NCBI GenBank assembly: GCA_030390025.1
Contig: CM059432.1
Coordinates: forward strand, 68,326,001 to 68,390,000
Reading direction: 5' to 3'
Origin: Squalus acanthias
Lineage: Eukaryota
Length of the DNA stretch: 64,000 nt
Part shown: piece by piece, positions 15,210 to 46,300 of the stretch
How the letters are laid out: every line of letters starts with the position of its first letter
Numbering within the stretch: position 1 is the stretch's first letter
Position numbers and translations under genes: made by a program
The notes under the pieces: generated by a model
What the model saw: the letters and a program-made list of their open reading frames with translations, nothing else
The model's database searches: none
What the model was told of the DNA's origin: nothing

Positions 15210-16685
15210 TAGGGATTCTCAATCTTTTTGCTTTCGAGCCCACCACCACCCTCCCACCCAATGTTATAAAAATTCCACGGACCCCCTGTAACAGAGCACA
15301 AGTATTTTTTCTGTATAAAAATTAGTTAATTGTTATTAATAGCTCTATTATAACCTTACGTAAAGAAAAATGTATTAAGTCCTAAATTTACATAAACAAA
15401 ATACCGCGGACGTTGGAAATCTGAAATGAAAACAGAAAATGCTGGAATAACTCAGAAAGGTCAGCGACCTGAAATGTTAACTCTGTTTCTCTCTCCACAA
15501 TGCTGCCTGACCTGCTGAGTGCTTCCAGCATTTTCTGTTTTTAACCTAAATTTACATTATGTGCCCATTTGCTGCCCGAGGTTTGCTCCACCCCATCAAC
15601 CATTTGCTTAACTGGAAATGAACCAGAAGCAACAAGCGCAGTGCTCACTACAGGCATGTTTCGTGCACACTTGGTCGAACTGGACTAAAATTCCAGGTCC
15701 ACATCCTCCATTTCGGAAACAGAACTTCCCTCTTATTTCAATACCAAACCCCAACACAGCGGTGAAAGCCAGCGACTTGAATTAACAGCACCAGTAGTGG
15801 CAGAGGCGGATGGCACGAGAGAAATGGAGAAATAAACAGGGCCCTGAGTGACTTTACCCACCCAACCTCATCGCCATAAGTCCTTTAGTGACAAAGGCAG
15901 CCCCCTTCTTTCCTCCTCCCCAACCCTTTCATAAATATCTCAAAGCACATGAGCATCCAGACTAGGCCTATCCGTCAGAGAAGCACATGGCCATGAATAT
16001 AAAGCTCCGAGTCTGAGATACGGGGAAAATCGTGATAATGCCATCAGCTATTTTATTAACTCAGACTGAAGACATTGAAGGAGAGAGTCACACTGGATCC
16101 CGATTATTACGGCCTTGCCGAAGGCCCGGAGACTGGAAAGTCTTTTTCTTTCCTTCCTCCCCACCTTCAAGGCCACGTGACATGCGCGCGCTCTCTCCAT
16201 TGATGGCGCTCTTTTCAAACGCGCGAGACACAGAGCAGCTCCGCAAGAGGGGAAAGAAGAGTTGAAAGGAAGGCTCACAATACCTTGTCCCACGCAACGT
16301 CTGACTAACTCGCTGATTTCCTCACCATCATTTAATAGTTAAAAGAGCTGAGTGGAACATGGAAGCGAATAGGGCTGGAGGAATAGGGCTGGATCAAAAA
16401 AAAACTTACCGAGGTAATACTGCTGTAAAACTCAGTGACCCACAAAGGGATTGTCTAAGCATTCAAATGGTGTCCAACAGTAAGAACCTGAATTGACTGT
16501 GCATGCACAGTCTTTATAGCTGAGACTATTCCACTCGTCTCAATATATAGGGGAGACTACTAATGTTTATGCCATAAACATTAGTAGTCTCCCCTGTATA
16601 TAGATGGGACAAACCAACTGGCGGACCCACAGAAATGTTCTCACAGACCCCTCGGGGGCCACAGACCCCCAGTTGAAAAGCCCTG
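15210..16685. mobile_element. Non-autonomous hAT (Charlie-like) element, 8-bp TSD CCATAGTG
   Basis: TIRs TAGGGATTCTCAA / TTGAAAAGCCCTG; CCATAGTG at 15202-15209 and 16686-16693; copy E shows the empty site near 58140. Confidence 0.9.
15394..15544. mobile_element. Penelope-derived fold-back insertion (family B) inside the hAT
   Basis: Inverted AAAACAGAAAATGCTGGAA arms; 13-bp duplication CCTAAATTTACAT at 15381-15393 and 15545-15557. Confidence 0.85.
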
Positions 16686-19461: not shown

Positions 19462-20019
19462 TGTTGATTGTTGCACAGAACACTATTCCCAATGATCTCA
19501 ACACCTCCAGCAGCCACAATGTATCTCCCCTTTAAGAGGTGCAGGCTAGCTTTAAGTAGCACTAGGCACTCATGATATTAGGCCCTCTGCTGTTGTGTGC
19601 AGCCAATGAACAGCGTGGAGAGTGCTGGCTGCATGCAGACATCATGGTAATGCGCAGACAGCAGGAATTTAGCGTCCTGGTTGCATTTCAATCGTGCAAC
19701 CATTTTCCTCCTTCAACTGGACCAGTTGTGGGATTGTGGCCTCTATGTACTGCTGGAAGGAACTGCTGTTCTCACTTTAGTTCCTGCCTACAGAGGCTTC
19801 AATTCCCGCTCTAGGATTAGTAACAGCGCTTCAAGGAGAGCGCGACCCAGTCCAATACATTAGCAGCCAGACTTAGGTAAAAGTGGCACTGGGGGAAGTG
19901 TGGTCCAGTTGGAGCTGATTTTTCTCAGCAGATGCTGACACTGGGACCTGGTAGCCAAAAAGTTGAGTGCTAATAGCCATGGAGCACACAACCAGTATCA
20001 GATATATAATAATCCTGAT

Positions 20020-20584
20020 ACAATAGCAAAATACTGCGGATGCTGGAAATCTGAAATAACAACAGAAAATGCTGGAAACACTCAGCAGGCCAGGCAGCAT
20101 CCGTGGAGAGAGAAACAATGTTAACATTTCAGGTCTGTGAACTTTCGTCAGAACTGGAAAAAGTTAGAGATGTAACAGGTTTTAAGCAGGTGCAAAGGCA
20201 GGGAAAGGGGGAGGGGAAGAAAGAACAAAAGGAACGGTCTGTGATAGGGTGGAAGGCAGGAATGGTTAAATATTGCAAATGAGGATGATAGAATAATCGA
20301 TAGCTGCCATGTGAAAAAATAGGGGCAGGGATTATAGTCTGAAATTGTTGAACCCAGTGTTGAGTCCAGAAGGCTGTAAAGTGCCTAATCGAAAGATGAG
20401 GTGCTGTTCCTCGAGCTTACGTTGAGCTTTGTTGGAACAGTGTAAGAGGCTGAGGACAGAGAGATCAGAGTGGGAGTGGAGCGGAGAATTAAAGTGACAG
20501 GCGACCGGAAGCTCGGGGTCATCCTTACGGACTGAACGGAGGTGTTTTGCACAGCGGTCACCCAATCTGTGTTTGGTCTCCCCA
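20020..20584 (-). mobile_element. 5'-truncated Penelope-like element: GIY-YIG C-terminus + pseudo-LTR (family B parent)
   Basis: GETKHRLGDR..HLRSV...PVACHFN...RKLEEQHLIFRLGTLQPSGLN; hammerhead motif at 20120-20155 (-); 14-bp duplication ATAATAATCCTGAT at 20006-20019 and 20585-20598. Confidence 0.9.
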
Positions 20585-23043: not shown

Positions 23044-24142
23044 ATCAACTGCGATAGTGTGGAGCTGATAATATCGTCCCAACATAGCAAATTGTGTTCT
23101 GACTATGTCTGTATCCAACTGAGTTGCCCTTACATGATAGTGCAATAATGTACTGGAGTGCCATGGGAATCAAGAACCAGAGAAGGGCTGCTAGTGGCCT
23201 TTACAACACCAAAAGTTTTTTTTATGTTTAAGGTGGTGGACTCCTAAGTTTTTTTCAGGATTTGGCAAAAAATGGGGCAGCAAGGTAGGGTGGTCCTGCA
23301 AGGGAGCAAGGCAGTTCTGTGAAATCATTCATTTTTTATCCATCTGTCATTCAATTTCTGTATTTCTCTGTATTTGTTGATTTAACGAGTGAGGCAGGTA
23401 TGGGGAACCAGGAGGTAGTGGTGGAGGAGCCTCCGCCCTTGCTCTTATCCAACAGTTACGAGGTTCTTACTCTCTGTGTGGGCGAGAGCAGGGACTGCAG
23501 TGAGGATGAGCAAACTGACCACAGCAGCATGGTACAGGGAGCCATTCAAGTAGAGGGAGCAAAAAGAAATGTGGTAGTGGTAGGGGACATTATAGTTAGG
23601 GTGATAGATACTGTTTTCTGCAGCCGAGAGCGTGAGTCCCGAAGGCTGTGTTGCCTGCTCAGTGCCAGGGTAAAGGACATCTCCTCTGGGCTGGAGAGGA
23701 ACTTAGAGTGGGAGGGGAAAGATCCAGTTGTCGTGGTCCATGTAGGTACCAATGACATAGGTAGGACAAAGAAAGAGGTTCTGCTGAGGGAGTATGAGCA
23801 GCTAGGGGCTAAATTAAAAAGCAGAACCACAAAGGTAATAATCTCTGAATTACTACCTGCACCACGTGCAAATTGGTATAAGGTAAATAAGATCAGAGAG
23901 ATGAACGAGTGGCTCAAAGATTGGTGTGGGAGAAATGGGTTTCGATTCCTGGGGCACTGGCACCAGTACTGGGATAAGAGGGAGCTGTTCCATTGGGACA
24001 GGCTTCATTTGAACCAGGCTGAGACCAATGTCCTGGCGAATCGAATAACTAGGGCTGTAGATAGGGCTTTAAACTAAATAGTTGGGGGGAGGAATACGCT
24101 GAGCGGAAATTAAAAAAGTCAAAGAAAAATGGGAAGGCAAAA

Positions 24143-27100
24143 GTGCAGGGTAGCGATAGGGGTAATAATAACCAAAGTGTGACAGGAAGGGACAGAGCAT
24201 ATACACAGAAGAGTGCATCAGAAAGAGGGGTCAGAGTAGAGAAAAATGGTAAAAAGACAAAATTAAAAGCTCTATATTTGAACGCACACAGCATTCGTAA
24301 CAAGATAGATGAGTTGACAGCACAAATAGAAATAAATGGGTATGATCTGATAGCCATTACAGAGACGTGGTTGCAAGATGACCAAGGCTGGAAACTGAAT
24401 ATTCAGGGATATTTGCCATTTCCTCAGGATAGGCAGAAAGGAAAAGGAGGTGGTGTAGCTCTTTTAATAAGGGATGAGATCAGTGTGGTAATGAGAAATT
24501 ATATTGGCCTAGAAGATCAAGACGTAGAATCAGTTTGGGTGGAGATAAGAAATAATAAGGGTAAAAAGTCACTGGTGGGAGTGGTCTACAGGCCCCCAAA
24601 CAGTAGCCACACTGTAGGACAGAGAATAAATCAAGAAATAATAGAGGCTTGTAAGAAAGGTACAGCTATAATCATGGGAGATTTTCATCTTCATATTGAT
24701 TGGACAAAGCAAATTGGCAAAGGTAGACTTGAGGAAGAGTTCTTAGAGTGTATACTGATGGTTTCTTGGAACAATATGTTGTGGAACCAACCAGGGAGAA
24801 GACTATTTTAGATCTGGTAAAGTATAAAGAGGCTGGATTAATTAATGATCTCAAAGTGAAGGATCCTCTTGGGAAGAGTGATCATAGCATGGTTGAATTT
24901 CAAATTCAGTTTGAGGGTGAGAATGCTAGGTCTCAAACTAGTGTCCTGAACTTAAACAAAGGTAATTACAAAGGTATGAAGGCAGACTTGATTAAAGTGG
25001 ACTGGGAAAATGTATTACAGGGTAAGACTGTAGAAAAGCAGTGGCAAACATTTAAGGAAATATTTCATAACTCTCAGCAAATATATATTCCAGTGAGAAA
25101 GAAAGACTCTAAGAGAAGGATGAACCATCCGTGGCTAACTAAGGAAGTAAAGGATGCTATCAAATTGAAAACAAAAGCATACAATGTTATGAAGAATAGT
25201 GGAAGGCCAGAGGAGTGGGAAATTTTTAAAAAGCAGCAAAGGACGACTAAAAAAATGATAAAGAAAGAGAAGATAGCTTATGAGAGTAAGCTAGCAAGAA
25301 ATGTAAAAACAGACAGTAAGAGCTTTTACAGGTATATAAAAAGGAAGAGAGTAGCTAAAGTAAACGTTGGTACTCTAGAGGATGAGTCTGGGGAATTAAT
25401 AATGGGAAACAGGGAAATGGCAGAGACCTTGAACAAATATTTTGTCTCGGTCTTCACAGTAGAAGACACTAAAAGCATCCCAATAATGGATAATCAAGGG
25501 GCTATTGGGGTGGGGGGGGGGGAACTTAAAACAATCACTATCACTACAGAGAAAGTACTAGGCAAACTAATGGGACTAAAGGTGGACAAGTCCCCTGGAC
25601 CCGATGGCCTGCATCCTAGGGTCTTAAAAGAGGTGGCTGCAGAGATAGTGGATGCATTGGTTGTAATCTACCAAAATTCCCTGGATTCTGGAGAGGTCCC
25701 AGGGGACTGAAAAACCACAAATGTAATGCCCCTATGTAAGAAAGGAGGGAGACAGAAAGCAGGCAACTATCGACCAGTTAGCCTAACATCTGTCATTGGG
25801 AAAATGCTGGAGTCCATCATTAAGGAAGTGCTAGCAGGACATTTAGAAAATCATAATATAGTCAAGCAGAGTCAGCATTGTTTTATGAAAGGGAAATCAT
25901 GTTTGACAAATTTGCTAGAGTTCTTTGAGGATGTAGCGAGCAGGGTGGATCAAGGGGAACCAGTAGATGTTGTGTATTTGAATTTCCAGAAGGCATTCGA
26001 TAAGGTGCCACATAAAAGGTTACTACACAAGATAAGAGCTCACGGGGTTGAGGGTAATATATTAGCATGGATAGAGGATTGGTTAACTAACAGTAATCAG
26101 AGAGTCAGGATAAATGGGTCATTTTCAGGTTGGCAAACTGTAACTAGTGGGGTGCCACAGGGATCAGTGCTGAGGCCTCAACTATTTACAATCTATATTA
26201 ATGACTTGGATGAAGGGACTGAGTGTAATGTAGCCAAATTTGCTGATGATACAAAGATAGGTGGGGAAGCAAATTGTGTGGAGGACACAAAGAATCTCCA
26301 AAGGGATATAGATAAGTTAAGTGAGTGGGCAAAAATCTGGCAGATGAAGTTTAATGTGGGAAAATACGAGGTTATCCACTTTGGTAGGAAAAATAAAAAA
26401 GCAAATTATTATTTAAATGGGGAGAGATTACAAAATGCTGAGGTACAGAGGGATCTGGGGGTCCTTGTACATGAATCACAAAAAGTTAGCATGCAGGTAC
26501 AGCAAGTCATTAGGAAGGCAAATGGAGTGTTGGCCTTTATTGCAAAGGGAATGGAGTATAAAAGTAGGGAAGTCCTGTTACAACTGTACAGGGCATTGGT
26601 GAGACCACACCTGGAGTATTGCGTACAGTTTTGGTCTCCTTATTTAAGGAAGGATATACTTGCATTGGAGGCAGTTCAGAGAAGGTTCACGAGGCTGATT
26701 CCGGAGATGAAGGGGTTGTTTTATGAAGAAAGGTTGAGCAGGTTGGGCCTATACTCATTGGAGTTTAGAAAAATGAGAGGGGATCTTATCAAAACATATA
26801 AGATTCTGAAGGGTCTTGACAGGGTAGACGCAGAGAGAATATTTCACCTCGTGGGGGAATTTAGAACTAGGGGGCATAATTTCAGAATAAGGGGACACCC
26901 CTTTAAATCGGAAATGAGGAGGAATTTCTTCTCTCAGAGGGTCGTGAATCTTTGGAATTCTCTTCCCCAGAGAGCTGTGGAGGCTGGGGCATTGAATATA
27001 TTTAATGTGAGAAGTCGCACAACACCAGGTTATAGTCCAACAGCTTTATTTGAAATCACAAGCTTTCGGAGCACTGCTCCTTCGTCAGGTGAAGTGACTT

Positions 27101-27310
27101 CACCTGACAAAGGAGCAGTGCTCCGAAAGCTTGTGATTTCAAATAAAGCTGTTGGACTATAACCTGGTGTTGTGCGACTTCTCACATTTGTCCACCCCAG
27201 TCCAACACCGGCATCTCCACATCATGAATATATTTAAGGTGGAGATAGACAGATTTTTGAACGATAAGGGAGTCAAGAGTTATGGGGAGCGGGCAGGAAA
27301 GTGGAGTTGA
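24143..27310 (+). pseudogene. CR1 ORF2 (endonuclease + RT), disrupted
   Basis: Frameshift near 24750, stop at 25708, and an insertion at 27006-27224. Confidence 0.9.
27006..27224. mobile_element. Penelope-derived palindromic insertion (family A) with back-to-back hammerhead motifs
   Basis: Inverted arms of about 85-90 bp plus a short 3' extension; 13-bp duplication TGAATATATTTAA at 26993-27005 and 27225-27237. Confidence 0.9.
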
Positions 27311-27403
27311 GGCCAAGGTCAAATCAGCCATGATCTTATTGAATGGCGGAGCAGGCTCGAGGGGCCAAATGACCTACTCCTGCTCTTACGTCTTATGTTC
27401 TTA

Positions 27404-28404
27404 TGGAAAAGGACAGGAAGCAATCTAGAGTAAGAATGTTTAACTGGGGGAAGGCCAATTTCAGTGGGATGAGAACGGATCTGGCCCGGGTAAACTGGAA
27501 TCAAAGATTGGCAGGCAAAACTGTAGTGGAACAATGGGCTGCCTTTAAAGAGGAAACAGTTCGGGTACAGTCGAAGTACATTTCCACGAGGGGAAAAGGT
27601 AGGGCAACTAAAGTCAGAGCTCCCTGGATGATGAAACAGATAGCCAATATAATGAAGCAGAAAAAGAACACGTATGACAGATGTCAGGTTACAAATACAT
27701 CTGAGAATCAGGCTATACATAGAAAGGTCAGAGGAGGAGTGAAAAAGAAAATAAGAGGGGCAAAGAGAGGGTATGAGAATAGAATGGCAGCCAACATAAA
27801 AGGTAATCCAAAAGTCTTCTATAGGCATATAAATACTAAAAGGGTAGCAAAAGGAGGGGTGGGGCTGATTATGGACCAAAAAGGAGGCCTATGCATGGAG
27901 GCAGAGGGTATGGCTGAGGTACTAAATGAGTACTTTGCATCTGTCTTCACCAAGGAAGAGGATGCTGCCATAGACATAGTGAAGGAGGAGGTAGTGGAGA
28001 CACTTGATAGTATAAAAATTGATAAAGGAAGTTATTAGAAAGGCTGGCTGTACTTAAAGTAGATAAATCACCAGGAGCGGATGGGATACCTCCTAGGATG
28101 CTGAGGGAATTGAGAGTGGAAATCGCGGAAGTACTGGCCATCATATTCCAATCCTCCACAGATATGGGGGTGGTGCCAGAGGACTGGAGAATTGCAAATG
28201 TTACACCATTGTTCAGAAAAGGGTGTAAAGATAAACCCAGCAACTATAGGCCAGTCAGTTTAACCTCGGTAGTGGGGAAGCTGTTAGAAACAGTAATCAG
28301 GGACAAAATTAACAGTCACTTGGATAGGTGTGGATTAATTAAGGGAAGCCAGCACAGATTTTTTTTTGATGAGGTAACAGAGAGGGTTGATGAGGGTAAT
28401 GCGG
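27404..28404 (+). mobile_element. CR1 ORF2 internal fragment (different subfamily)
   Basis: FNWGKANF, APWM, LNEYFASVFT, NYRPVSLTS. Confidence 0.85.
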
Positions 28405-28405
28405 T

Positions 28406-28580
28406 CGAGATAGACAGATTTTTGAATGATAAGGGAGTCAAGGGTTATGGGGAGCGGGCAGGGAAGTGGAGTTGAGGCCAAGATCAGATCAGCCATGATC
28501 TTATTGAATGGTGGAGCAGGCTCGAGGGGCCGAATGACCTATTCCTGCTCCTACGTCTTATGTTCTTATGTTCTTATGTA
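28406..28580 (+). mobile_element. Short CR1 3'-end insertion
   Basis: Closely matches 27242-27403; (CTTATGTT)n tail. Confidence 0.88.
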
Positions 28581-29251
28581 TGTTCTAACAGCACATAATT
28601 TCTGTTGCTGTTTACTGGGGTCACCAGGAGTGCATCAGCATTTTCAGTGAGTCCCTGATCGTAAGCCAATATTTACCCCTAGGCCGTATGATAAATTGAG
28701 CACATTAATTTTTCAGAGCATCCACTGAATAAATTTATTTTTGTTGTTTACAGGCAGTAAAAGTTTTCTGCTAATATTCAGCTGCATTAATAAAGTTTTC
28801 AAAATTGATGTTAATTAAGTGGCATTTTAGCTGATTGAGAAGCATTAAATGATTATTATTGCAGTAGTTATTATCAGCTGCCAGTTTTTGACTACCACCA
28901 ACAAAATCCTAATCTCACAAATCGATTTGCTAATTATGTGAACTATGATGAATAACAGGCATTTAGCTCATTTTACCTCGAGAGGAAACCATGGCCTCTA
29001 GATACCTTAGGAATATTGATAATATTTACAAACAGGATGCTCATCTACAGTCAAGAGACCAACAGATTACATGGAGTACATTTTAGAATCCAGCCTAGAA
29101 ATGCATTCCTAATAATGTGTATTAATGTGTGCTCACAGTGGGTGGTTAAGAGTGAACTTACCATACAAGTGGTCATGAGTCAGGATAAGTCTGGTCTGTG
29201 ACTGAGTGCTGGAGCTGTAAGTGCGCATACAAACCCCAAACTAATGATAAT

Positions 29252-29993
29252 GGGCCGAAAATTGATCCCGGGACGCGAGAGTACGCACTGCGTACTCTCG
29301 CGTATTCCCACTCCAATTGCCGGTTTTCTGCATGCCCTGCGCGTGCGCTGAAAACCGGCAATTGCTCTTCTGAAAAGGGGGCGGGTCCTGGGTGCATCGC
29401 GTGCGCGCTACAGGCTGCGCGCACGCTGTGCACTTCATGCTTTGGACGCGCAGGTAAGTAAGGAAGATTTTGGAAATGTAAAAAGGAGGAGTAAGACCCG
29501 CTTTTAAGAAGGTAAGTAGTGAATTAAGTATTTTTTTGAATTTTTTTTTACAGGTATATCTTTTTTAGAGACTTTAAAGACAGGTAAGTTTATTTTTATA
29601 ACTTTTTAAAAGATTTAAAAAATTTTCAAAAATTTAATTTTTTATTTAAAATGGTTAATTTAATTAACTATACTTATTTTATTAATGTGATGGGGTTTTT
29701 TTTAAATTTAATTGAGGTTTAGCTGTTATTTTGGGGGGTGTAAGATTCATAGATTTCACAGGGTGCTGTGAAACTTATGAATGGAAGATGGTGTGCTGCC
29801 ATTGGCTCTAACTGAGTCACGTGATCCCACAGCTCGCACGAATTCACTACGCCGCTGGGATACGCAAGCACTGCCCAGCTGATCTCTAGAACATGAAGTT
29901 CGTGCGAGCTGGATCTGAAAAAGCACAAGCGAGGTGAGAGATCGCGGGAAAGCCTTACCCCCGCGGGAACAGAGCGAGATCAATTTCTGGGCC
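29252..29993 (+). mobile_element. Harbinger-type MITE, sister of 54497-55239 in opposite orientation
   Basis: TIRs GGGCCGAAAATTGATC / GATCAATTTCTGGGCC; flanks AAT/ATT. Confidence 0.9.
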
Positions 29994-30226
29994 ATTATCT
30001 ATATAAATCTGGAATGAATCTATTAATCATTGTTGATGACCTTGAAAAATGAACAGTGTAGCATCAAAGCCATGTGGACTGTATGGGTGAGAAGGCAATT
30101 GGTAATGGGGAAAAGCGGGTATATGATATCATTAAGTGCTACATTTCATCTGGCATCTGAGAAAGAAAGTTATGGAAAATAATCTGCATATTACGACAAA
30201 AGATGTTGCATGTTACAGAGACACTG

Positions 30227-30600
30227 GGGGAAGAATTTAACTCATGGCGGTCCAATTTGCACCCAAAAAGCGGGCAGCCAAAAGTTGAAAATCAGGAGCG
30301 GGCCTTGGCCGCCCCATTGACGCCCAAGGCCCCCCGATGCCGTATTTAGGCGGGCCTGTAAATGAATGAGTTGTAGGACCCCAGTGCAAAATTCAAGTAC
30401 AAATGGGCAGTGCTTGCTCTGCACAAGCTCTGCGTAGTTGTACCAGGTCTTCAGAGGCCGAACCAGCAGTCCTTGAAGCTGCTCAAAAACATCTGCAAAA
30501 CTTTTTCAAAACTTTATTTTTGTGGAGTCAGGAGGAGCAGGAGTGCTCCCCCTGCCTCCACAAATATACTGTGGGCTGCTGCCGGCCTGGGATCGACTCA
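30227..30600. mobile_element. Partial Harbinger-type MITE
   Basis: Starts GGGGGAAGAATTTAAC; GC-rich interior resembles 32164-32871; right end not found. Confidence 0.5.
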
Positions 30601-30639
30601 ATTTATTGTAGGTTCAGTGCTACAACCTCACAGTGGGTG

Positions 30640-30745
30640 GAAGTCCCACCCTACCTCAGGCTGTATAGTTAAATGCATGGTGGGGCTTGAACTCACAACC
30701 TTCTGACTTAGAGGTAAAATGCTACCACCTAAGCAATGCTGACAC
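30640..30745 (-). mobile_element. tRNA-derived SINE head fragment
   Basis: The reverse complement has A/B-box-like GCTTAGGTGGTAG and GAGTTCAAGCC, similar to 34040-34105. Confidence 0.6.
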
Positions 30746-31409
30746 TTAATCCACACCTTCTTTCACCAGTTTCAATACCATCGAACTAACATGATCTTTA
30801 AGTGATTATCTGATTTTGTTTTTCACAAAAACGGTCCAATTATTGCTTCCGTTTAGCGAGAGTTTACCAACTTCTGATGCAAAATTTGAGTTTTCCATGT
30901 TTCCAGTTACTTTAAACTAAAGTGGAAGAACTTGATATAAAATACTGTACAGCAGAATCTGATTGCTGCAAAAAATATTATGAACAGCATTAGCTACAAT
31001 TTAATTGTCACTTTGACATATATTAGTTTTAATTTCTTTGAGAAGATTATTAAGCCAAATTTGAATTTGTACTGCAACTTAATGTAATACTGTCAGTGAA
31101 ATTTCCTGTGCTTCCCATTTCTTAAATAAAATGTTGAAAATAGCCTCAATTAATGACAGTTTAAACATTTTCTTTTTTGATAAACTATTAGTCAGTTAAA
31201 AGGATAGTCAAACATTGGATTCAGTTTTATAAGAAGACATAATAAGAAGAATATTTGAACAAACACACTGGAACTGTCAAGGCTTAATCCATTTGTCAGA
31301 AATAGCCTTACAAACTGGAAGAGCTTTGGAAATTAGTCTATTTGTGATGCTATGCTGTGTGTCTTTTCTTAGTAATTGCCAGCAACTGCTGAGAAGATTA
31401 CAATAAAGT

Positions 31410-31497
31410 AGCCCTTCTCAAGGGCAATTAGGGATGGGCAATAAATGCTGGCCTTGCCAGCGACGCCCACATCCCAGGAACGAATAAAAGAAAAAAT
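31410..31497 (+). mobile_element. 3'-terminal fragment of the second LINE family
   Basis: GGGCAATAAATGCTGGCCTTGCCAGCGACGCCCACATCCC plus an A-rich tail, as at 36885-36945. Confidence 0.85.
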
Positions 31498-31818
31498 TGA
31501 TCTGAGTAATAATTTATTTGTGACTTTGTTCTTTGTCCTGAGTCTTTTATAGGATTGTATAGAAAGATGCTAGAAGCAGTTTGTCTAAATGCACATGGGT
31601 CACTTGTCATTTGAATGTTAAAGTGACCTGCCACTTATAAGATCATTAAAATTACTGCAGCTTCAAAGAATCTTGATAACTGACAATATTACTGCTACAA
31701 TATTGTATGATTGATCTATATTTTCAATGGTTAAGGCGGTGGGTGGCGTAACAGGTCAAACTCTGTCCTGTCACCTCTGAGTCCATGATTTGAATTGAGC
31801 CCAGACTGAAGAGGTGAA

Positions 31819-31964
31819 GGCCTAGAAATTCGTCTCGGGCAGTGATGCAAAATGGACGGTCTCGGATTGCAGTCAGTGGAACTGAATATCAGACACTGCG
31901 TATAACGGGCAGCCGATCAGATACCGCCCGTTTTGCCCCACCACCCAAGACAAATTTCTAGGCC
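31819..31964. mobile_element. 146-bp Harbinger-type MITE
   Basis: Perfect 12-bp TIR GGCCTAGAAATT with further imperfect pairing inward; flanks GAA/GAC. Confidence 0.85.
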
Positions 31965-32163
31965 GACGGTTTTCTCTGGTTGGCTATATGGATGCTACGT
32001 AAAATCGTTTACTAAGCCCAAATCCTGATAGCAATTCCGTGGCACAGAGCTACACAGAATTTGACAGTAACTTTGAAATCTCATTCAAGGATGAGCCCAA
32101 GATGGCAGATTTGGTGAATGGAGCCACTGACACGACTGCAGAACAATGGCCCCGATATTGATA

Positions 32164-32871
32164 GGGGCAAGTTTTATAATCGAGGGGAGGAGGTTCGGTC
32201 AGGAAACCCGGAAGGCTGGGTTTCACCGCATGCTGTGGAGTTTTAACTCCACAGTATGTATCTTTGTTTTTCAACAGGATCTCCGCCTGGAAGCCAGCCT
32301 GATTGACAGGCTTGGCTCCCAGTCGGGTGGGGAACATTCTGGAGCAGGCCGCAGCCCCAGGTAAGGTGCATGGGGAGTATGATCCCAACCCCGGGGGAGG
32401 GCATCCGATCCCAGGGAGGGTTCAATTCCTGACCCCGGGGGGGAGGGGGGGTGTCCGATCCTGGGAAGGATAAATCCCGGGGGGTGGGGGTCTTTGGATG
32501 GGGAGGGAGTCCGATGGCGGGCAAATCAGCACATAGCTTGGTGGGCCGTGAGGAAGCACTTTGCTCCTCTTGGCCCACAAGCAGTGCCGTAAGGTCACTT
32601 ACATTTTCTCCGAAGCTGTTCCCGCCTCCCTTCAGCTGCCGGGTTTCCCGAGGTCTGGGAAACCTGGCCAGCCAGACAGGTTAAATGTGAGGCTCCTAGC
32701 CTCATTATAATATTTAAATGGCCAACCCACCTCCTGTGAGCAGGTTGGCTGCCTGTCCCCTGTCCCGCCTCCATTAAACCCGAAAGTGGGCGGGTTGGAG
32801 GCGATACTTAAAAAAAAATGTACATATCACCCGTCCCAAATCCACCTGCTCTTGGGGGTTAAACTTACCCC
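32164..32871. mobile_element. Harbinger-type MITE
   Basis: GGGGCAAGTTT ... AAACTTACCCC; flanks ATA/AAA. Confidence 0.75.
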
Positions 32872-34217
32872 AAATGTGTCTTACAGAGGCTAAAGCACAA
32901 TGTTGGGAGAAAGCTGAGAAAGGATGGGGAAATGGTCAAAATAATTTTAACGTAAAGTATTTCTGTGAGTCCACGGCAGCCTCAGGCAGACCTCGGTTCT
33001 CATGAGCAGATCCTTTGGTCTAACTTAGGCTGGCTGCTCTTGAGATCAAATGTATTTGATTTGCTTATTGCTATTGGATGTTCATCCTCTACAATCTCAT
33101 CCCAGATATAAGTCAATGGCTCAATACCAAGAGGGACTCAAAGCTGGAGACTGACTCATCAACCAAATACACCATTCCATTCAGAAGAATCAATATAGTG
33201 GGGTTCCATGAGGTGGACCATATTGTGCACCCTATGCTACACCTGAACTTGGAGTGCTTGATACTGGCAAGTGCCAAAAAATTAAAAAATATTAGACCTG
33301 ATTTTAACTTGAGGTGAGAATCGTGCAGGGACCGACGAGGGCAGCAAACTGTCCTGGCCTTGGCAGCGTGAGGCACAGGCAATTTTAACTCCCAGGCTTC
33401 AGCAACATGCCACAAGTCAATTGCCTGCCCAAAATTAGCAGGAAGCGGCAGCTGGCTGGTGGGCCGGATCAGAATATTGGGCTGTAGGAGGCCACTCAGG
33501 AGCAAACCAGGAAGTGGGTAAGCTCCAAAACTTTTTTAAAATGTTAGAGAGAGCAAAACAAAGATTGGGGCCCTCACATGGGGAAAAGGCAAACCTGAAA
33601 TAAAGATGAACAAACTTTAAAAAAAAATTTGTTTCTAAAAATTTTAATTTTTATTAAAATGGTTAAATTTGACTTTGCATAAAATTAAAATTAGTTTTTC
33701 AGGGCCATAATCTTTGTTTAACAGTCAATATGCTGTTAAAACCCCAGTTAGACCTAATCCAACAAGGTTTAACTTTTAGTGGGGAATTTAGCGGTGTTAC
33801 TGCGGAAGATCCGAAGTTTTCGTCAGTTTCCCTGATTTGAGAGATTTAACTGACTGCCGGCTCTGTGGCTGGGGTGGGGGCAGGCGGGGGTGGGCGGGGT
33901 GAGGCGAGGGACGGCCACAGCGCAGCCTGTGGAGCAGCAGTGATTGACAGACCGCAACTCCAGGATTTACGCATTAGGCTGCCCTAAATCCTGAAGTTGC
34001 GGTCAGTTTCAAAAGTGAAATGATGCCGAGCATGTCAGCTGTGGCTCAGTGGGTAGCACACTCGCCTCTGAGCCACAGGGTTGTGGGTTCATAGTCCCAC
34101 TCCAGAGACTTGAGCACAAAAATCTAGGTTGACACTCCAGTTCAGTACTGAGGGAGTGCTGCACTGACGGAAGTGCCGTCTTTCAGATGAGACGATAAAC
34201 CAAAACAAGGCTATGTC

Positions 34218-34578
34218 TGATCTCACTGAAACATACAAAATTCTTACAGACCTTGACAGGGTAGATGCAGGGAGGATGTTTCCCCTGCTGGGATGTCTAG
34301 AACCAGGGGGCACAGTCTCAGAATAAGGTGTCGGCCATTTAGGACTGAGATGAGGAGAAATTTCTTCACTCAGAGGGTTGTAGAGGCTCAGTCGTTGAGT
34401 ATATTCAAGACAGAGATCAAAAGATTTTTGAATATTAAGGGAATCAAGGGATATGGGGATAGTTCAGGAAAGTGGAGATGAGGTAGAAGATCAGCCATGA
34501 TCTTATTAAATGGAGGAGCAGGCTCATAGGGCCAAATAGCCTACTCCTGCTCCTATTTCTTATACTCTTATGTTCTTA
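34218..34578 (+). mobile_element. CR1 3' fragment inside the SINE
   Basis: RTRGHSLRI, FFTQRVV and a CR1 3' tail. Confidence 0.88.
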
Positions 34579-36029
34579 GATCTAGCAGCTCAAATCTGGG
34601 CATCCATGAGGCGCTGTGGGCCATCAACAACAGCAGAATTGTATTCCAACACAATCTGTAACCTCATGGCCCGGCATATCCCTTACTTTACCATTACCAT
34701 CAAGCCAGGGGATCAACCATGGTTCAATGAGGAGTGTAGAAGAGCATGCCAGGAGCAGCACCAGGCGTACCTAAAAATGAAGTGCCAACCTCTTGCAGCT
34801 ACAACACAGGACTACACGCATGCTAAACAGCAGAAACAGCATGCTATAGCCAGAGTTAAGCGATCCCACAACCAACGGATCAGATCAAAGCTCTGCAGTC
34901 CTGCCAGATCCAGTCATGAATGGTGGTGGACCATTAAACAATTAACGGGAGGAGGAGGCTCCATGAACATCCCCATGCTCAATGTTGGCGGAGCCCAGCA
35001 CGTGAGTGCAAAAGACAAGGGTGAAGCGTTTGGAACCATCTTCAACCAGAAGTGCCGAGTGGATGATCCATATCGGCCTCCTCCTGAGGTCCCCACCATC
35101 ACAGAAGCCAATCTTCAGCCAATTCGATTCACTCCATGTAATATCAAGAAACGGCTGCCTGCACTGGATACAGCAAAAGCTATGGGCCCCGACAACATCC
35201 TGGCTGTCATGCTAAAGACTTGTGCTCCGGAACTAGCCGTGCCTCTAGCCAAGCTGTTCCAGTACAGCTACAACACTGGCATCTACTCGACAATGTGGAA
35301 AATTGTCCAGGTATGTCCTGTCCACAAAAAGCAGGACAAATCCAATCCAGCCAATTACTGCCCCATCAGTCTACTTTCAATCATCAGCAAAGTGATGGGA
35401 GATGTCGTTGACAGTGCTATCAAGAAGCGCTTACTCACCAATAACTTGATCACCGATGCTCAGTTTGGGTTCTGCCAGGACCGCTCAGCTCCAGACCTCA
35501 TTATAGCCTTAGTCCAAACATGAATAAAAGAGCTGATATCCAGAGGTGAGGTGAGAGTTACTGCCCTTGACATCAAGGCAGTATTTGACCGAGGAGCCCT
35601 AGTAAAATTGATGTCAATGGGAATCGGGGGGAAAATCCTCCACTGGCTGGAGTCATACCTAGCACAAAGGAAGATGGTTCTGATTGTTGGAGGTCAATCA
35701 TCTCAGCCCCAGGACATCACTGCAGGAGTTCCTCGGGCAGTGTCCTCGACGCAACAATCTTCTGCTGCTTCATCAATGACCTTCCCTCCATCATAAGGTT
35801 AGAAGTGGGGATGTTCGCTGATGATTGCACAGTGTTCAGTTCCATTCGCAACTCCTCAGATAATGAAGCTGTCCATGCCCGCATGCAGCAAGAGCTGGAC
35901 AACATTTAGGCTTGCGCTGCTAAGTGGCAAGTAACTTTCGTCCCACACAAGTGCCAGGGCAATGACTATCTCGAACAAATGTGAGAAGTCGCACAACACC
36001 AGGTTATAGTCCAACAGATTTATTTGAAA

Positions 36030-36066
36030 TCACAAGCTTTCGGAGCGCTGCTCCTTCGTCAGGTGA
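36030..36066 (-). ncRNA. Minimal type I hammerhead ribozyme motif (minus strand)
   Basis: Reverse complement reads UCAC CUGACGA A GGAGC-agc-GCUCC GAAA GC UU GUGA. Confidence 0.75.
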
Positions 36067-36068
36067 CT

Positions 36069-36106
36069 TCACCTGACGAAGGAGCAGTAGCTCCGAAAGC
36101 TTGTGA
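36069..36106 (+). ncRNA. Minimal type I hammerhead ribozyme motif (plus strand)
   Basis: UCAC CUGACGA A GGAGC-agua-GCUCC GAAA GC UU GUGA: core, stem I, stem II and palindromic AAGCUU at stem III. Confidence 0.75.
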
Positions 36107-38792
36107 TTTCAAATAAAACTGTTGGACTACAACCTGGTGTTGTGCGACTTCTCACATTTGTCCACCCCAGTCCAACACCGGCATCTCCACATCATATCTC
36201 TAACAAGAGAGAATTTAGCCACCTCCCCTTGACATTCAACGGCATTACCATCGCCGAATACCCCACCATCAACATCCTGGAGTCACCATTGACTAGAAAC
36301 TTACCTAGGCCAGCCACATAAAGACTGTGGCTACAAGAGCAGATCAGAGGCTGGCTATTCTGTGACGAGTGTCTCACCTCCTGACTCCCCAGAGCCTTTC
36401 ACCATCTACAAGGCACAAGTCAGGAGTGTGACTGAATACTCTCCACTTGCCTGGATGAGTGCAGCTCCAACAACACTCAAGAAGCTCGACACCATCCAGG
36501 ACAAAGCAGCCTGCTTCATTGGCACCTCATCCACCACCTTAAATATTCACTTCCTTCACCACCGGTGCACTGTGTCTGCAGTGTGTACCATCTACAAGAT
36601 GCACTGCAGCAACTCACCAAGGCTTCTTCGACAGCACCTTCCAAACTCACGACATCTTCAACCAAGAAGGACAAGGGAAGCAGGCACATGGAAACACCAT
36701 CACCTCCAAGTTTCCCTCCAAGTCACACACCATCGTGACTTGGAAATATATCGCCGTTCCTTCATCGTTGCTGGGTGAAAATCGTGGAACTCCTCCCTAA
36801 TAGTACTGTGGGAGTACCTTCACCTCACAGACTGCAGCGGTTCAAGGAGGCAGATCACCACCACCTTCTCAAGGACAATTAGAGATGGGCAATAAATGCT
36901 GGCCTTGCCAGCAACGCCTACATCCCATGAACGAATAAAAAAAAGCAGTGGACATAAAAGATCCCATAAGACTATTCGAAGAAGAGCAGGGGAGTTATCC
37001 CTGCTGTCCTGTGCCAATATTTATCCCTCAATGAACATCACTAAAACAGATTATCTGGTCATTGTCACATTGCTGTTTGTGGGAGCTTGCTGTGCGCAAA
37101 TTGGCTGCCGCGTTTCCCACATTACAACAGTGACTGCACTTCAAAAGTACTTCCTTGGCTGTAAAGCACTTTGGGACATCCTGAGGTTGTGAAAGACGCT
37201 ATATAAATGCAACTCTTTCTTTTTTCTTTATCATTAGGACCGCAAATTCCGGGCCAATATGTCAGTTCACTGATACATGTGTGCAGAAATAGACCTCTGA
37301 TAAGTTCAGGTGTAGTCCCAGGGCAGTGACAGTTGTGACCAAAATGCTTTGAGTCGTTGTATCTGTATTTTTTGATTACTCATGAAGTCCTCTTCCTCAT
37401 TTCAATTATGCAACGCATTGGGAATTTCGAAAGGAATATCCATCCTCATTTCTTCATTAAGATGTGACATCATAGCAAACTGAAGCCAAAAGTAAAAATG
37501 AAAAGTACTGGCGAGGAAAAATTCCAAAGTGCAAAAAGGAGGCCTTCCGAGCAAAATCAAGTAATGTATGGACCAAAATGTAGACAAAGGAAAATAACAT
37601 GCAAGAAAAATAAAATATAAAAAATAAATAAAACTTACCTACTCCCTGTGAGCGGTCTTCTGGAGCTAGCGAGTTCACAAAGACCATGGCGCACCCAGCT
37701 TTTATGGGTAAGGTGCATGCTGTGGGCAGAGACTTACCCAAACTTGTAAAATTGGGCAAAACTGTTTAAAGGCTCATTTACATATTTTAACAAGGCCCGC
37801 ACATGTCTGTAACAGAGGCTTCAATTAGCACTAGAACATCCCATGATCTGGCATGATGTCCTGGAACTAATTTTGCAGACCTTGCTGGCTGCGTGCAAGA
37901 CCCCATTGGTAGCACAGCGTCTCATACGATCAGGGCGTTGCTTTAATCTGCTGGAATTGTTTGAGGAAGTAACTAAACTAGTGTACAAGGGTAATCCAGT
38001 GGAAATAATTTACTTCAGTTTTAAGAAGGCTTCATTTTCTCTGGTGTCCAGGTTTTGCTGTAGCCAATTTCCTTGCAGCCTGCTCATTGTATCGGAGCAA
38101 TGTTTTCCAGTTCCTCGAACCAGCACAATCTTTCCGTTAAATTAGTCTGACAGACCACCTTGTTACCTTACTCCTTTGTCCTTTTGGCTCATGTTTTTCC
38201 ACAAAGACAAAGCCAAATAAAAACAGATATTGTTTTCATCGTCAGCAATAGCATTATTTATTTATATAATTAAAGCCATAATTATGATCTGAATTATGCA
38301 GCATGCCACAATTTTTTACTAAGTTCTCATTTTAAGAGGTTTTACATCGTCTACTTCCCCCGTAGGCTGAGAATAATAATAATAATTCCTACTGTTTTCC
38401 ATGGCAACAAATGAAATAGCAGACACAGGAATAATATACGGAGGGTTGCGGGGGAATAGAATAACTGCATTTTTGCTCAGGGGTGAATCAATCAGGCGGT
38501 GAGGTCACACGATGGTCCTCACAGCTGCTTAATAAATATAACTTCTTTATGTTGTGGCCCTGATAAATTGCATCACAGAGATGTAGATTTTTCTTTTGAT
38601 CAAATCTAAGCTTCTAATTGTAACTGTTGAGTAACTAAAATATCCTGTAGAAATGTGGGCCTACAAATTGGATCGTACCCGAATCGGGGTGCAATCACGG
38701 TGCAGTGATGCTGCTCGAGCCTAATGAGGCCGGCAGCAGAACCAATACACCTGAGGCCTGGTGAAAGAAATTCTAATGATTATAGTCAGATG

Positions 38793-39010
38793 TTTGAAAT
38801 AAAAACAGAAAATGCTGGAGATACTCAACAGGTCAGGCAGCATCTGTGAAGAGAGAAACAGAGTTAACGTTTCAGGTCGATGACCTTTCGTCAGACCTGA
38901 AACATTAACTCTGTTTCTCTCTTCACAGATGCTGCCTGACCTGCTGAGTATCTCTAGCATTTTCTGTTTTCATTTCAGATTTCCAGCATCTGCAGTATTT
39001 TCTTTTTGTA
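38793..39010. mobile_element. Penelope-derived fold-back insertion (family B) with a minus-strand hammerhead core
   Basis: Inverted arms of about 80 bp; CTGACGA-A-AGGTC-atc-GACCT-GAAA-CGTT on - at 38866-38894; duplication ATAGTCAGATG at 38782-38792 and 39011-39021. Confidence 0.88.
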
Positions 39011-41068: not shown

Positions 41069-42242
41069 ATGGGGGCTGTACTGGCACTCCACCTTGCCCT
41101 CCGGCAACTGCATTTGAGGCAGCTGATGCAGAGACAGAGATAGCCAAATGTGGCCAGAGGGAGGAGGGCCGACAGACCTCACAACAGGAGGCCTTACCCT
41201 CCCAGGGTTTTCCAGGAGCACTTCTCCTACATTCATCTCTCAGAGGAGCAGTGCCTTAGAAGGCTCCGCCTCAGCAAGAAGGTGGTCACAGAGCTCTGCC
41301 ACCTCCTGCAGCCAGACCTCCAGCCTCAGCTCAGGACCAGGACGTCTCTTTCAGTGGCAGGTAAGGTCACAGTCGCTCTCAAATTCTACGCCAGCGGCTC
41401 CTTCCAGGCTTCAACAGGGGATATTGCAAACATTTGCAGTTCGCCATCAATTGCTGCATCCGGGAAGTAACAGATGCTCTCTACAGAAGGAGAAGGGAGT
41501 ACATCTCATTCTCCATCACCAGAGAGAAGCAGGGCGACCGCTCATGTGGCTTTGCAAGGATAGCGGGCTTCCCCATGGTTCAGGGTGCCATTGACTGCAC
41601 CCTCGTAGCATTGCGGGCACCTCATCACAATGCAAAGGTGTTCCGTAACCACAAAGGCTACCACTCTCTGAACGTTCAGCTGGTGTGCGACCACAGCCAG
41701 CTCATCTTCGCCGTCAATGCCCACTATACTGGCAGCAGCCACGATGCATTCATCCTGCGACAGACTGGTGTCCCAGCACTGTTCCACCCACCACATGAAG
41801 CTCGCAGCTGGCTGATTGGAGACAAGGGTTATCCACTCGCCACCTGGCTGATGACACCCCTCTGCAACCCCAACACTCCTGCTCAGCATGCATACAATGA
41901 CACCAACAGCGTCACCAGGAACTTGATCGAACAGACTATCGATGTGCTAAAGCAATGGTTCCGCTGCCTTGAAGCTCTGGAGGAGCCCTGGAGTACTCCC
42001 CTAGTCAAGTCTCCCTTTTCATAGTTGTGTGCTGCATGCTGCACAACCTGGCCATTCTGAGGGTCCAGCCATTGCCACCAAGGATTGGAGGTCCACCTCA
42101 GAAGGAGGAAGAGGGAAAGGAGGAGGAGGCGGAGGAGAAGGATGAAGAGGAGGAGGAGCAGCAGCAATGGAGGAGGGAGGCAATCAATCTTGCTTATGCA
42201 AGGGCCGTGCGTGAGCGCCTCATTAGACAGCGCTTCCAATAA
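41069..42242 (+). pseudogene. Harbinger D transposase, frameshifted
   Basis: GAIDCT, GSSHDA, IGDKGYP and CCMLHN spread over three frames. Confidence 0.9.
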
Positions 42243-43339: not shown

Positions 43340-46300
43340 TTACTCCCCCTCAATGATTTCCCTCCCCTTTTGACTTCCCCCTCCCAACCCTACTGCTCCT
43401 CCATAATGTGGCCCCAGTGGCTGCAGCAAGGCTGGCGGAAGGGTGCTGAGTCTGGGAGCCAGAGACTGCAGATGGCCATCCAGGACGCCCTCGACCAGCT
43501 CTGGGCCTGGAAGGCCCGGCTGCAGACTGCACCACCTCAGCATGTGCGGCAGCAGTCTGGGATGTCTGGGTTACAGGCTGCAATGGCGGAGTGGCAGTGG
43601 TGGGAGCAGGAATGCTGTCACCTGAGAGAGGACAGGACCTTCCTGCTCGACCGACACACTGCCACTCCCCTGGGGCAGAACCTCAACATCTGGAGCAATC
43701 TGCTTGAGCACAGATTACTGGCCTGCTGCGGTACTGAGAGATCCCCGGGGGACTATGGGCGACCCACCAAGGATGGCAGCAGTCAGTGCTTGCGTGGCAT
43801 CAATCTGAGACTGCATGAGAGCAGTCTGAGACTGGCTGCCACCAACCACTGACTCCATTACAGTACTAAGCCATTGCATTGCTTTGGCCTGTGCTGCAAT
43901 AGCTGCTGCCACCTCACCCATCACACGCGGCATGAGGTCTGGGTCCCTACGGTCTCTCTGCGAGTCGAACATCCTTTGCAAACTGCCAAGGATGGGCTCG
44001 ATGGTGTGAGCAGAGCTGAGTGCAATGTTGGAGGCGGACTCCTTCACGCTCCTTGCCAGTGCATTCATGCTCTCGGGCACCCTTGCCATTGCACCCAGGA
44101 GCTTGGTGTGCATGCCCATCGCCCGTCTGGTCAACGCCGCCACATTGACTTCCTCATCTGAGTCCTGTGCAGCAGAACTCGTGCACGAACTCACCCTCCG
44201 GGGAGATGGTCCCTGAGCTTCCATTTCCCCCTGGCGTTGCTGCAGCCCGCTGGGTCCCGGAGCTTCACCCACATCAAACCCATCTGCAAGGCTCCCCTCC
44301 AGCGACCGCGTCACCCCATTATCAGGCCTAGTGCCTTCGGGAGAAACAGCCAGTGAGGCTCTGGCTTATTCTTCCTCCTCCTCTCCCGCGTCGCTGCCAC
44401 TGGGAGGCTGAGGGACAGGCTGGTCAGCTGGTGGCTGATTATCTGAAAGCATAAAGGCACAAGAGTGGGGTTAAGGTCAGGGGAGGGGGGCAGGAACATA
44501 AGAACATAAGAACATAAGAAATAGGCGCAGGAGTAGGCCAATTGGCCCCTCGAGCCTGCTCCGTCATTCAATAAGATCATGGCTGATCTGATCCTAACCG
44601 CCAATCTACTACCACAGAACCATCTCCTGAACCTAACAGAATTGGACACACGAAATAGGAGCAGGATCAGGCTACACGGCCCCTGGGCCCGCTACTCTAC
44701 CCACAGGGCCATGACCGATCCGAACCTAGACTCATGTCCAAATTCCTGCCCGCTTCCTGTAACCTTTAATTCCCTTTACTTCTAGGAAACTGTCTATTTC
44801 TGTTTTAAATTTATGTAATGATGTAGCTTCTACAGCTTTTTGGGGCAGCATATTCCATGGACCTACCATCCTCTGAGTGAAGTAGTTCCTTCTCATCTCA
44901 GTTTTGAAAGAGCAGCCCCTTATTCTAAGACTATGCCCCCTAGTTCTAGTTTCACCCATCATCGGGAACATCCTCCCTGCATCCATCCGATCCAACCCCT
45001 TCACAATCTTATATGTTTCAATAAGATCGCCTCTCATTCTTCTGAACTCCAATGAGTAGAGTCCCAATCTACCCAACCTCTCCTCATATGTCCATCCCCT
45101 CATCCCCGGGATTAACCGAGTGAACCTTCTTTGTACTGACTCGAGAGCAAGTATGTCTTTTCTTAAGTATGGACACCAAAATTGTATGCAGTATTCCAGG
45201 TGCGGTCTCACCAATACCTTGTACAACTGAAGCAATACCTCCCTATTTTTATATTCTATCCCCCTAGCAATGAAAGCCAACATTCCATTGGCCTTCTTAA
45301 TCACTTGCTGCACCTGCATACTAACCTTTTGAGTTTCGTGCACCAGGACCCCCAGATCCCTTTGTACTTCAGTACTTTCCAGTTTCTCGCCATTAAGATA
45401 ATAACTTGCTCTACTATTTTTCCTGCCAAAGTGCATAACCTCACACTTTCCAGTATTGTATTCCATCTGCCAAATCTCTGCCCACTTATTTAACCTGTCT
45501 ATGTCCCCTTGCAGATTTTTAATGTCCTCCTCACTCACTACTTTCCCTCCCATCTTAGTATCATCTGCAAACTTTGATATGTTACACTCGGTCCCCTCCT
45601 CCAAATCGTTAATATAGATTGTAAAGAGTTGGGGACCCAGCACTGACCCCTGTGGAACACCACTAGTTACTGATTGCCAGTCTGAGAATGAACCATTTAT
45701 CCCAACTCTCTGCCTTCTGTTAGATAGCCAATCCTTTATCCATGCCAGAATATTACCCCCAATCCCGTGATTTTTTATCTTAAGCAATAATCTTTTGTGT
45801 GGCACCTTGTCAAATGCCTTTTGGAAGTCTAAATACACCACATCCACTGGTTCCCCTTTATCCACCCTGTATGTTACTTCCTCAAAGAACTCCAGCAAAT
45901 TTGTCAAACATGTCTTCCCCTTCATAAAACCATGCTGACTTTGTCCTATTAAATTATGATTATCCAAATGTCCCGTTACTGTCTCCTTAATAATGGACTC
46001 CAAAATTTTACCTACCACAGATGTTAGGCTAACCGGTCTATAGTTTCCAGCCTTCTGTCTACTGCCCTTTTTAAATAAGGGTGTTACATTAGCAGTTTTC
46101 CAGTCTGCCAGGATCTTTGCTGAGTCCAGGGAGTTTTGGAAAATTATTACCAATGCATCCACAATCCCTACCGCCACTTCCCTCAAGACCCTAGGATGTA
46201 AGCCATCAGGTCCAGGTGATTTATCTGCCTTGAGCCCCATTATTTTACCGAGTACCACTTCCTTAGTGATTTTGATCGTGTTTAGCTCCTCCCCCCCTAT

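Follow-up and report, generated by a model that had tools for sequence, protein, structure and literature searches.

How did two small, nearly identical palindromes, each with a hammerhead ribozyme motif on either strand, come to lie 8.9 kb apart in Squalus acanthias DNA, and are they mobile or catalytic units in their own right? The stretch that was analysed, hereafter the window, covers 64,000 nt (assembly GCA_030390025.1, contig CM059432.1, positions 68,326,001 to 68,390,000). Inserts A (27006-27224, 219 bp) and B (35979-36194, 216 bp) are 95% identical across 220 aligned columns and, as a preliminary description had it, each possesses its own target-site duplication (13/13 and 11/12 matching bases). 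On balance, each is probably what remains, after extreme 5' truncation, of the insertion of a high-copy Penelope-like element (PLE) with an endonuclease; the palindrome would be built at insertion and the ribozymes would be masked passengers. Coordinates are positions within the window and the letters A to F designate the copies named in the analysis (Table 1).

Two head-to-head inserts and a sister family

Both A and B are single head-to-head inserts, with no head-to-tail tandem, and share one layout, i.e. an inverted arm of ~90 bp, a direct arm, then 36 bases on the right only. The arms of A pair at 91 of 92 positions around a central base, and those of B (~90 bp) at 94%; each insert folds back just upstream of its hammerheads, one per strand, where the preliminary description had placed them. 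The outer ends of A and B agree to 1-2 nt: the tail ends 120-121 nt after core base C3, and the tail-less arm of the family ends at C3+84 to +88. The centre junctions are unlike, about 4-5 nt apart. The direct arms of A, of B and of the older lone arm C begin at the same base (27097, 36066 and 2365, respectively); the inverted arm of A stops at the equivalent of 27097 and that of B 3-4 nt short of it. The central base of A, 27096, is the G that precedes the direct arm; it could have been templated as part of the inverted arm or added by copying of a 5' cap, as occurs with L1.

Target duplications were found for five of the six bounded copies (A, B, D, E and F); none was convincing for C, whose best candidate (8/11) was rejected. 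Taken together, the duplications are A+T-rich (53/69, or 77%, against a background of 53%; p 3.5e-5). In this repeat-rich window, matches of the grade of A's duplication occurred by chance 8 times, and those of B's grade 13 times, per 40,001 random position pairs. Excising insert A together with one duplication restores a continuous LINE reverse-transcriptase frame (RVT_1), and LINE paralogues have no insert at this site.

PLE insertions are described as strongly truncated on their 5' side, where many of them carry a shortened inverted copy, with a tail of 30-40 bp at one end (Craig et al. 2021, PMC8557442; here and below, cited papers are drawn on for part of their text). Arkhipova et al. (2013, PMC3846280) report the same anatomy, with duplications around the whole unit and junctions that are mostly head-to-head. 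Since an inverted arm, an arm and a one-sided 36-nt tail reproduce this anatomy, we read A and B as PLE insertions. The tail, which is confined to one arm in all four two-arm inserts (A, B, D and F), is absent from the preliminary description, as are the unlike centre junctions of A and B and the second family of the same build presented below.

The motifs are of the kind expected. According to Cervera and de la Pena (2014, PMC4209133), the minimal motif has an extra base after A9, a G-C first pair, a palindromic stem III and no loop 3. The motifs of A and B have the extra base after A9, the G-C first pair of helix II, a palindromic 15.2-16.2 segment and no loop 3; they point outwards, one per strand, in complementary arms, with the opposite-strand cores 11-16 nt apart. 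Core and helices I and II are intact in three of the four (4-bp helix I, 5-bp helix II), the fourth being the plus-strand core of A, where the G8>A change already noted was located at 27109. A minimal-hammerhead descriptor matched 3 times in the window, as against no match in 100 random windows of 64 kb. The PLE-type origin and minimal, dimer-type hammerhead advanced in the preliminary description thus agree with the published pattern in both anatomy and motif. The covariance-model check that it proposed did not: Rfam yielded no hammerhead match at E<=10, with the whole window or the motif alone, which we attribute to models that expect a loop 3 but which is still a miss. MiRNA-like hairpin matches in Rfam, below the gathering score, were dismissed as generic hairpin scores.

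A second minimal-hammerhead family, without significant sequence similarity to the first, served as an internal control (copies D, E and F). Compared with the first family, its stem III consists of another palindromic tetramer, and helices I and II are not the same, yet remain paired. The inverted arm of D keeps a hammerhead core with 3/4 helix I pairs; the tail-bearing arm of F is far shorter than its tail-less arm. In this family, the 3' ends keep to fixed places, C3+132 for the tail and +94 to +99 for the tail-less arm, and the 5' ends are variable (about -433, -1, +5, +14 and +66 relative to C3); the centres are up to 70 nt apart, often without a ribozyme core.

Copy E contains the C-terminal half of a GIY-YIG-type endonuclease, with its stop at 20332-20334. 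Its 90-residue frame is 65-70% identical to domains in three skate/ray protein records (5 matches among 28 candidates), with 70% identity over 84 aa to the domain of P0001. The matching domain opens with a GIY-YIG-type motif in P0001 and P0002 (Pfam E 0.008, weak and under the cut-off), the third protein-atlas match carries GIY-YIG on 23% of its members, and the fragment of E itself has no Pfam match. No PLE reverse transcriptase was seen with this endonuclease, the reverse transcriptase of P0001 being read as a fused LINE piece. The frame of E links this build to a PLE of the same genome that bears an endonuclease, though not to the family of A and B, and it points to a cartilaginous fish.

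The three records, P0001-P0003, are skate/ray gene models named receptor or uncharacterised proteins that end in the same GIY-YIG-type domain, probably through annotation read-through into PLE fragments; in P0002 a cysteine-rich linker precedes the domain, as described for the Neptune clade. Copy E also shows, at 20153-20175 (minus strand), a branch-point-like motif, a pyrimidine run and an AG 2 nt upstream of the hammerhead core, resembling the intron end at helix I of the D. virilis Penelope (PMC4209133); the inverted arm of D ends near the same point.

Table 1. Copies of the two hammerhead families in the window and their parts
Feature	Position	Strand	Remarks
Insert A, left target-site duplication	26993-27005	+	13 bp, AT-rich; final 2 bases also match the arm end
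Insert A, inverted arm, no tail	27006-27095	-	intact minimal hammerhead 27056-27092, C3 at 27088
Insert A, centre	27096		one unpaired base
Insert A, direct arm	27097-27188	+	hammerhead 27100-27136; G8>A at 27109, CpG-type change
Insert A, tail	27189-27224	+	36 nt, one-sided, A+C-rich (72%); end 120 nt past C3
Insert A, right target-site duplication	27225-27237	+	host is the 3' end of a LINE reverse-transcriptase frame
Insert B, left target-site duplication	35967-35978	+	11/12; final 4 bases also match the arm end
Insert B, inverted arm, no tail	35979-36065	-	hammerhead 36030-36066, 3-nt loop 2
Insert B, direct arm	36066-36158	+	hammerhead 36069-36106, 4-nt loop 2, predicted cut after 36102
Insert B, tail	36159-36194	+	36 nt, one side only
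Insert B, right target-site duplication	36195-36206	+	pairs with the left duplication 11/12
Copy C, older lone tail-less arm of first family	about 2365-2453	+	helix I damaged
Control D, second family	38797-39010		inverted arm, arm and tail; duplication 14/15; direct arm without CUGANGA core
Control E, second family	20020-20584	-	ordinary 5'-truncated PLE, duplication 14/14; endonuclease fragment, 3' UTR, hammerhead (C3 20151), tail
Control F, second family	15396-15544		short tail-bearing arm inverted against tail-less arm; duplication 14/15; neither core complete
Further second-family site	about 51780-51870		

The first family in public sequencing runs

One arm with its tail (27094-27224, 131 bp) was aligned to 4 of 21 listed runs. 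For organism A this gave 9,803 and 14,179 contigs in two DNA-type runs and 2,162 in a probable RNA run; for organism I, only 9 raw reads out of 1,523 million letters (run X21) matched, not enough to map junctions. Left out of the contig comparison were five RNA runs whose word shares came to 0.10-0.16. The first family is present in thousands of copies or more: summed contig depth peaked at 8.4 and 5.6 million, a value that is not a copy number, against roughly 12-30 for long single contigs. The fall in depth towards the 5' end of the arm was not retained as a sign of truncation, for loop-2 variants and edge effects clip alignments there.

The ends of the 131-bp stretch were overrun by 441 and 1,655 contigs. 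Among the loose ends listed, 3' junctions to unrelated flanks bunch at 27184-27194 in the DNA runs (21-68 contigs per position, flank agreement 0.36-0.42). A further group is found at the tail end, and six contigs of the RNA-type run end at 27223. On the other side, 13, 22 and 4 contigs in three runs extend, un-inverted, upstream of 27097 with a common pyrimidine-rich motif, from which we conclude that the arm belongs to a longer parent element; the extension is visible for 30 letters at most. With this extension, 27097 is the A of a match to the initiator consensus YYANWYY, which is too loose as proof and fits a branch-point pattern equally. Finally, one contig in each of two DNA runs has the inverted arm joined straight to the tail, linking 27097 and 27188 in opposite orientation, the product expected if two primers use one RNA.

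A 3,967-nt contig of the probable RNA type (run X6, record 18, depth 87) carries a sense-strand arm at its positions 51-137; it could be the transcript of the autonomous element or a host RNA. Pattern scans for more copies returned one chance locus per scan in viral contigs and none in two scans of genome contigs. The 120 metagenome loci sharing a 16-mer were rejected as chance matches (best bit score 39).

The sequence variants of the family differ between run types. Three of 12 variant rows attain 3% in the probable RNA run and in no other, each of them an A>G or T>C change: position 27144 (7.2% versus 0.10-0.14% in DNA runs), 27160 (4.6% versus 0.50-0.62%) and 27162 (10.7% versus 0.14-0.18%), a 7- to 74-fold excess across 43-69 contigs. 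Contigs less than 90% alike made up 13% of the probable RNA run versus 1.2-1.6% of the DNA runs. These changes look like A-to-I editing on both strands, in a run that is only guessed as RNA and stems from another sample than the DNA runs; the signal is family-wide and does not come from A or B. Also family-wide is a T>C change at the cleavage base H17 (the equivalent of 27132), which amounts to 6-19% of depth in the DNA runs versus 1.7% in the probable RNA run.

How the palindromes may have been built

The route that we propose has four steps. The protein of the element, an enzyme that is presumed for the family of A and B, would cut AT-rich DNA on both strands, 12-15 nt apart, to give the duplications observed. 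Each free target end would then prime reverse transcription at one of two internal start sites near the 5' end of the RNA, the arm end and the tail end (C3+120); the ends are seen to be fixed, and the use of both as start sites is supposed. Both cDNAs would halt, on uncleaved RNA, at or just before the 5' boundary seen ~7 nt upstream of the hammerhead core, which may be the transcription start. A head-to-head joint would form between the two cDNA ends, which overlap by 0-4 nt, and be filled in; the outcome would be a dead, promoter-poor stump with two passenger hammerheads. Double priming of this kind, followed by run-off, would explain why the ends are fixed, why only one arm has a tail, why A and B are of nearly the same length and why the hammerhead is left uncut, as well as the direct joint between arm and tail.

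Comparison of the arms bears on whether the palindromes were built anew or inherited. The arms of A differ at 1 of 87 columns and have two variants in common that B lacks. Those of B differ at 4 of 88 columns, including loop-2 length, a family-level variant, and position 27148, at which the two arms have different letters and the DNA runs show three frequent ones, G, A (36-52%) and T (13-18%); B may thus come from two templates. Comparing like with like, the left arms of A and B show 2 differences and the right arms 4. There are no arm-specific variants common to A and B and left arms do not group apart from right arms (n=2), so that the palindromes appear to have formed separately, which for two copies compared is suggestive, not proof. 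In the second family, the arms of D differ at 4 of 82 columns versus 7-12 between either of them and copies E and F.

Several points weigh against double priming. The anole study saw priming without homology (PMC11167929), and Arkhipova et al. (2013) ascribe head-to-head junctions to self-priming on an antisense template (PMC3846280). No centre joint of the A or B type was present among the loose ends listed, assembly graphs breaking at palindromes. Two protein searches with the arm frames found no parent protein for the family of A and B (0 of 17 candidates; 0 matches). Only two first-family palindromes are readable in full, and they invert within about 4-5 nt of each other. In addition, the likeness of the arms within A and within D could come from fold-back synthesis or later conversion, and the arm differences of B could be later mutations, its duplication having a mismatch as well (1/12).

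The main rival keeps the same origin from PLE stumps but has the inverted arm self-primed: the first cDNA, or the antisense template, would fold back and be extended, the second nick being resolved at the arm end. We hold this version to be possible, though clearly the less likely of the two. Besides being the published reading of head-to-head PLE junctions (PMC3846280), it predicts arms that are identical at birth, and the few differences within A (1/87) and D (4/82) come close to this, those of D being below the distance of its arms to E and F. It accords less well with the arms of B, which hold different family-wide variants, and with the centres, which have no loop-forming spacer in common; the joint made of arm and tail only and the short tail-bearing arm of insert F are more simply explained by two separate primers.

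That the palindrome is a mobile unit in its own right, as the preliminary description had suggested, is improbable. Here a non-coding palindromic unit would be transcribed and re-copied whole, in trans, by a PLE protein. Its appeal lies in the close agreement of A and B, to 1-2 nt at the ends and about 4-5 nt at the centres, in the great abundance of the family, and in published statements that the pseudo-LTR (pLTR) alone can support mobilisation in trans and that non-autonomous PLE derivatives exist. But near-fixed inversion points are expected from run-off at a fixed RNA 5' end, or from fold-back, so that fixed ends do not reveal an independent unit, and randomness of the inversion points, put forward as the refuting observation, does not discriminate. 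The centres of A and B differ; no lineage of left or right arms is apparent; the un-inverted upstream extension belongs to something longer; and the sister family has the same build with widely spaced, variable centres. Moreover, the outer end of the inverted arm falls exactly at the priming site with overlap to the target, which a re-copied unit would not need, and both the upstream priming site and the sequence near the promoter would be concealed in the hairpin. We give as little credit to a bolder variant, in which a subset of the stumps would be a self-perpetuating, PLE-dependent, SINE-like palindrome with a fixed centre, its ribozymes silenced by the antisense arm, and numerous enough to be a main source of edited dsRNA in cartilaginous fishes.

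Even less probable is another proposal of the preliminary description, that the back-to-back hammerheads work and can cleave transcripts of the host from either strand. It is true that three of the four cores are intact and that the isolated right arm of B is predicted to fold both stems (0.98 and 0.94), the isolated left arms doing so poorly (0.06-0.18). In the full inserts, however, which fold at a predicted -157 to -183 kcal/mol, the probability of stem II in read-through RNA is at most 5e-12 in all four strand/insert combinations, and for isolated arms the dimeric active fold lies 4-14 kcal/mol above the best cofold. Whichever strand is transcribed, the outward orientation of the cores puts the antisense arm first, and the cores, being on opposite strands, are never both present as sense copies on one RNA. 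For want of a loop 3 a second molecule is required. A lone minimal hammerhead did not cleave and dimers did so little (PMC4209133), while the anole motif depends on its protein, and RNA-seq showed no reads ending at the site of that motif (PMC11167929). One core of A is mutated, and D and F have lost one or both cores. With both ribozymes buried, as folding predicts they would be, in a ~90-bp hairpin of read-through RNA and with such weak cleavage of published minimal motifs, cutting of host RNA by A and B is unlikely. The dsRNA of ~85 bp foreseen in the preliminary description fits this predicted hairpin.

We also judge it very improbable that the palindromes arose through misassembly or through later rearrangement of copies with a single arm, perfect inverted repeats being a known artefact type and no run contig having been shown to cross a centre, because four inserts of two families are flanked by duplications around the whole structure, their arms differ at 1-4 sites around asymmetric centres, and 0.90 of B's sampled words are contained in five DNA runs of two studies, one run possibly being the source of the assembly itself.

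To conclude, the structure is known as a class, and the bold claims of the preliminary description are not supported. Read as PLE insertions, the stumps form a natural record of how these elements integrate, with two fixed 3' end sites and a preferred stop just upstream of the hammerhead; thousands of copies would allow double priming to be tested against self-priming, a choice left open by the cited papers. Their biological effect is likely to reside in A-to-I edited dsRNA, a high-copy family that makes its own ~90-bp hairpin being a ready substrate for ADAR.

The single arm given in the preliminary description at 2361-2449 is real, with its position corrected to that of copy C; it is diverged at 11-13 of 88 columns, with the inner pair of helix I broken, and sits inside a DDE/Myb-type DNA transposon. 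The host of insert A may be a CR1 and that of copy C a Harbinger; the domain matches show only RVT_1, DDE_Tnp_4 and Myb. The window appears to be largely made of transposable elements. DDE_Tnp_4 transposase copies lie at 806-1993, 14448-14996, 41365-42024 and 57537-57992, with convergent Myb/SANT-domain frames at 3469-3933, 19071-19577 and 47662-48237; these repeated copies are 60-88% identical and presumably Harbinger-like. LINE reverse-transcriptase frames are found at 5035-6387, 24065-27237, 44732-47512 (open over 696 residues at 44732-46822) and 55084-55839.

Comparison with known systems

It is standard for PLEs to have inverted pLTRs, short 3' extensions and an internal promoter (PMC8969392, PMC2377424). 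A and B resemble truncated insertions of endonuclease-bearing (EN+) PLEs in their head-to-head inverted arm, one-sided tail, target duplication enclosing the entire unit, terminal-repeat hammerhead and AT-rich targets. They depart from them in that they keep no coding sequence and consist of a near-perfect 180-bp palindrome plus a tail; the target duplications, at 12-15 bp, are also longer than those of the rotifer examples (8-10 bp). Outside subscription papers, Repbase, Dfam and retrozyme supplements, the literature gave no account of this family or of palindromes of such stump size; a paper on a killifish Neptune contained none of the structural features looked for by name, and a search combining twin priming, Penelope and inversion returned nothing related by title.

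All the defining features of metazoan PLE minimal hammerheads are found in the motifs of A and B. Pairs of opposite-strand motifs, 100-700 bp apart, have already been mentioned and attributed to truncated PLEs (PMC4209133); in A and B, unlike those pairs, the cores are just 11-16 nt apart and lie within fully complementary arms. The non-LTR retrozymes (bioRxiv 10.64898/2026.07.22.740005) are likewise small, non-coding and PLE-derived, with a type I hammerhead, but they form head-to-tail tandems with same-strand ribozymes that release monomers or circles, whereas A and B are single and head-to-head.

The closest mechanistic parallel concerns PAc (Poseidon of Anolis carolinensis). The protein of this anole PLE cuts and extends both strands at AT-rich DNA, and synthesis begins at two internal RNA positions that mark the limits of the tail, on a template RNA that is uncleaved (Frangieh et al. 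2024, PMC11167929). A and B have in common with PAc an AC-rich tail end ~120 nt past the core and AT-rich targets, and would share the two start sites at the tail limits, the uncleaved template and the extension of both strands. The PAc start region lies 111-118 nt into a frame beginning at stem II, i.e. ~119-127 nt after C3 as estimated from the text of that paper, versus 120-121 nt for the tail end here. The PAc frame starts inside the hammerhead, and no such start exists in the arms of A and B; inverted products are not described for PAc in the part of the account drawn on here.

In the twin priming of L1, both target ends prime and the products join in inverted orientation, as in the route proposed for A and B; L1 inversions are not known to duplicate the arm, whereas in A and B the arm is duplicated.

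As to the RNA, heavy editing has been reported for Penelope in a lizard and for palindromic Harbingers in a frog (Porath et al. 2017, PMC5625713). The ADAR substrates of Xenopus are, like A and B, self-folding repeats of ~200 bp, heavily edited there, although the Harbinger palindromes are termini of a DNA transposon and are not built at insertion. The edit-type changes seen here suggest that the family of A and B contributes to RNA editing in its lineage, as the palindromic Harbingers do in frogs.

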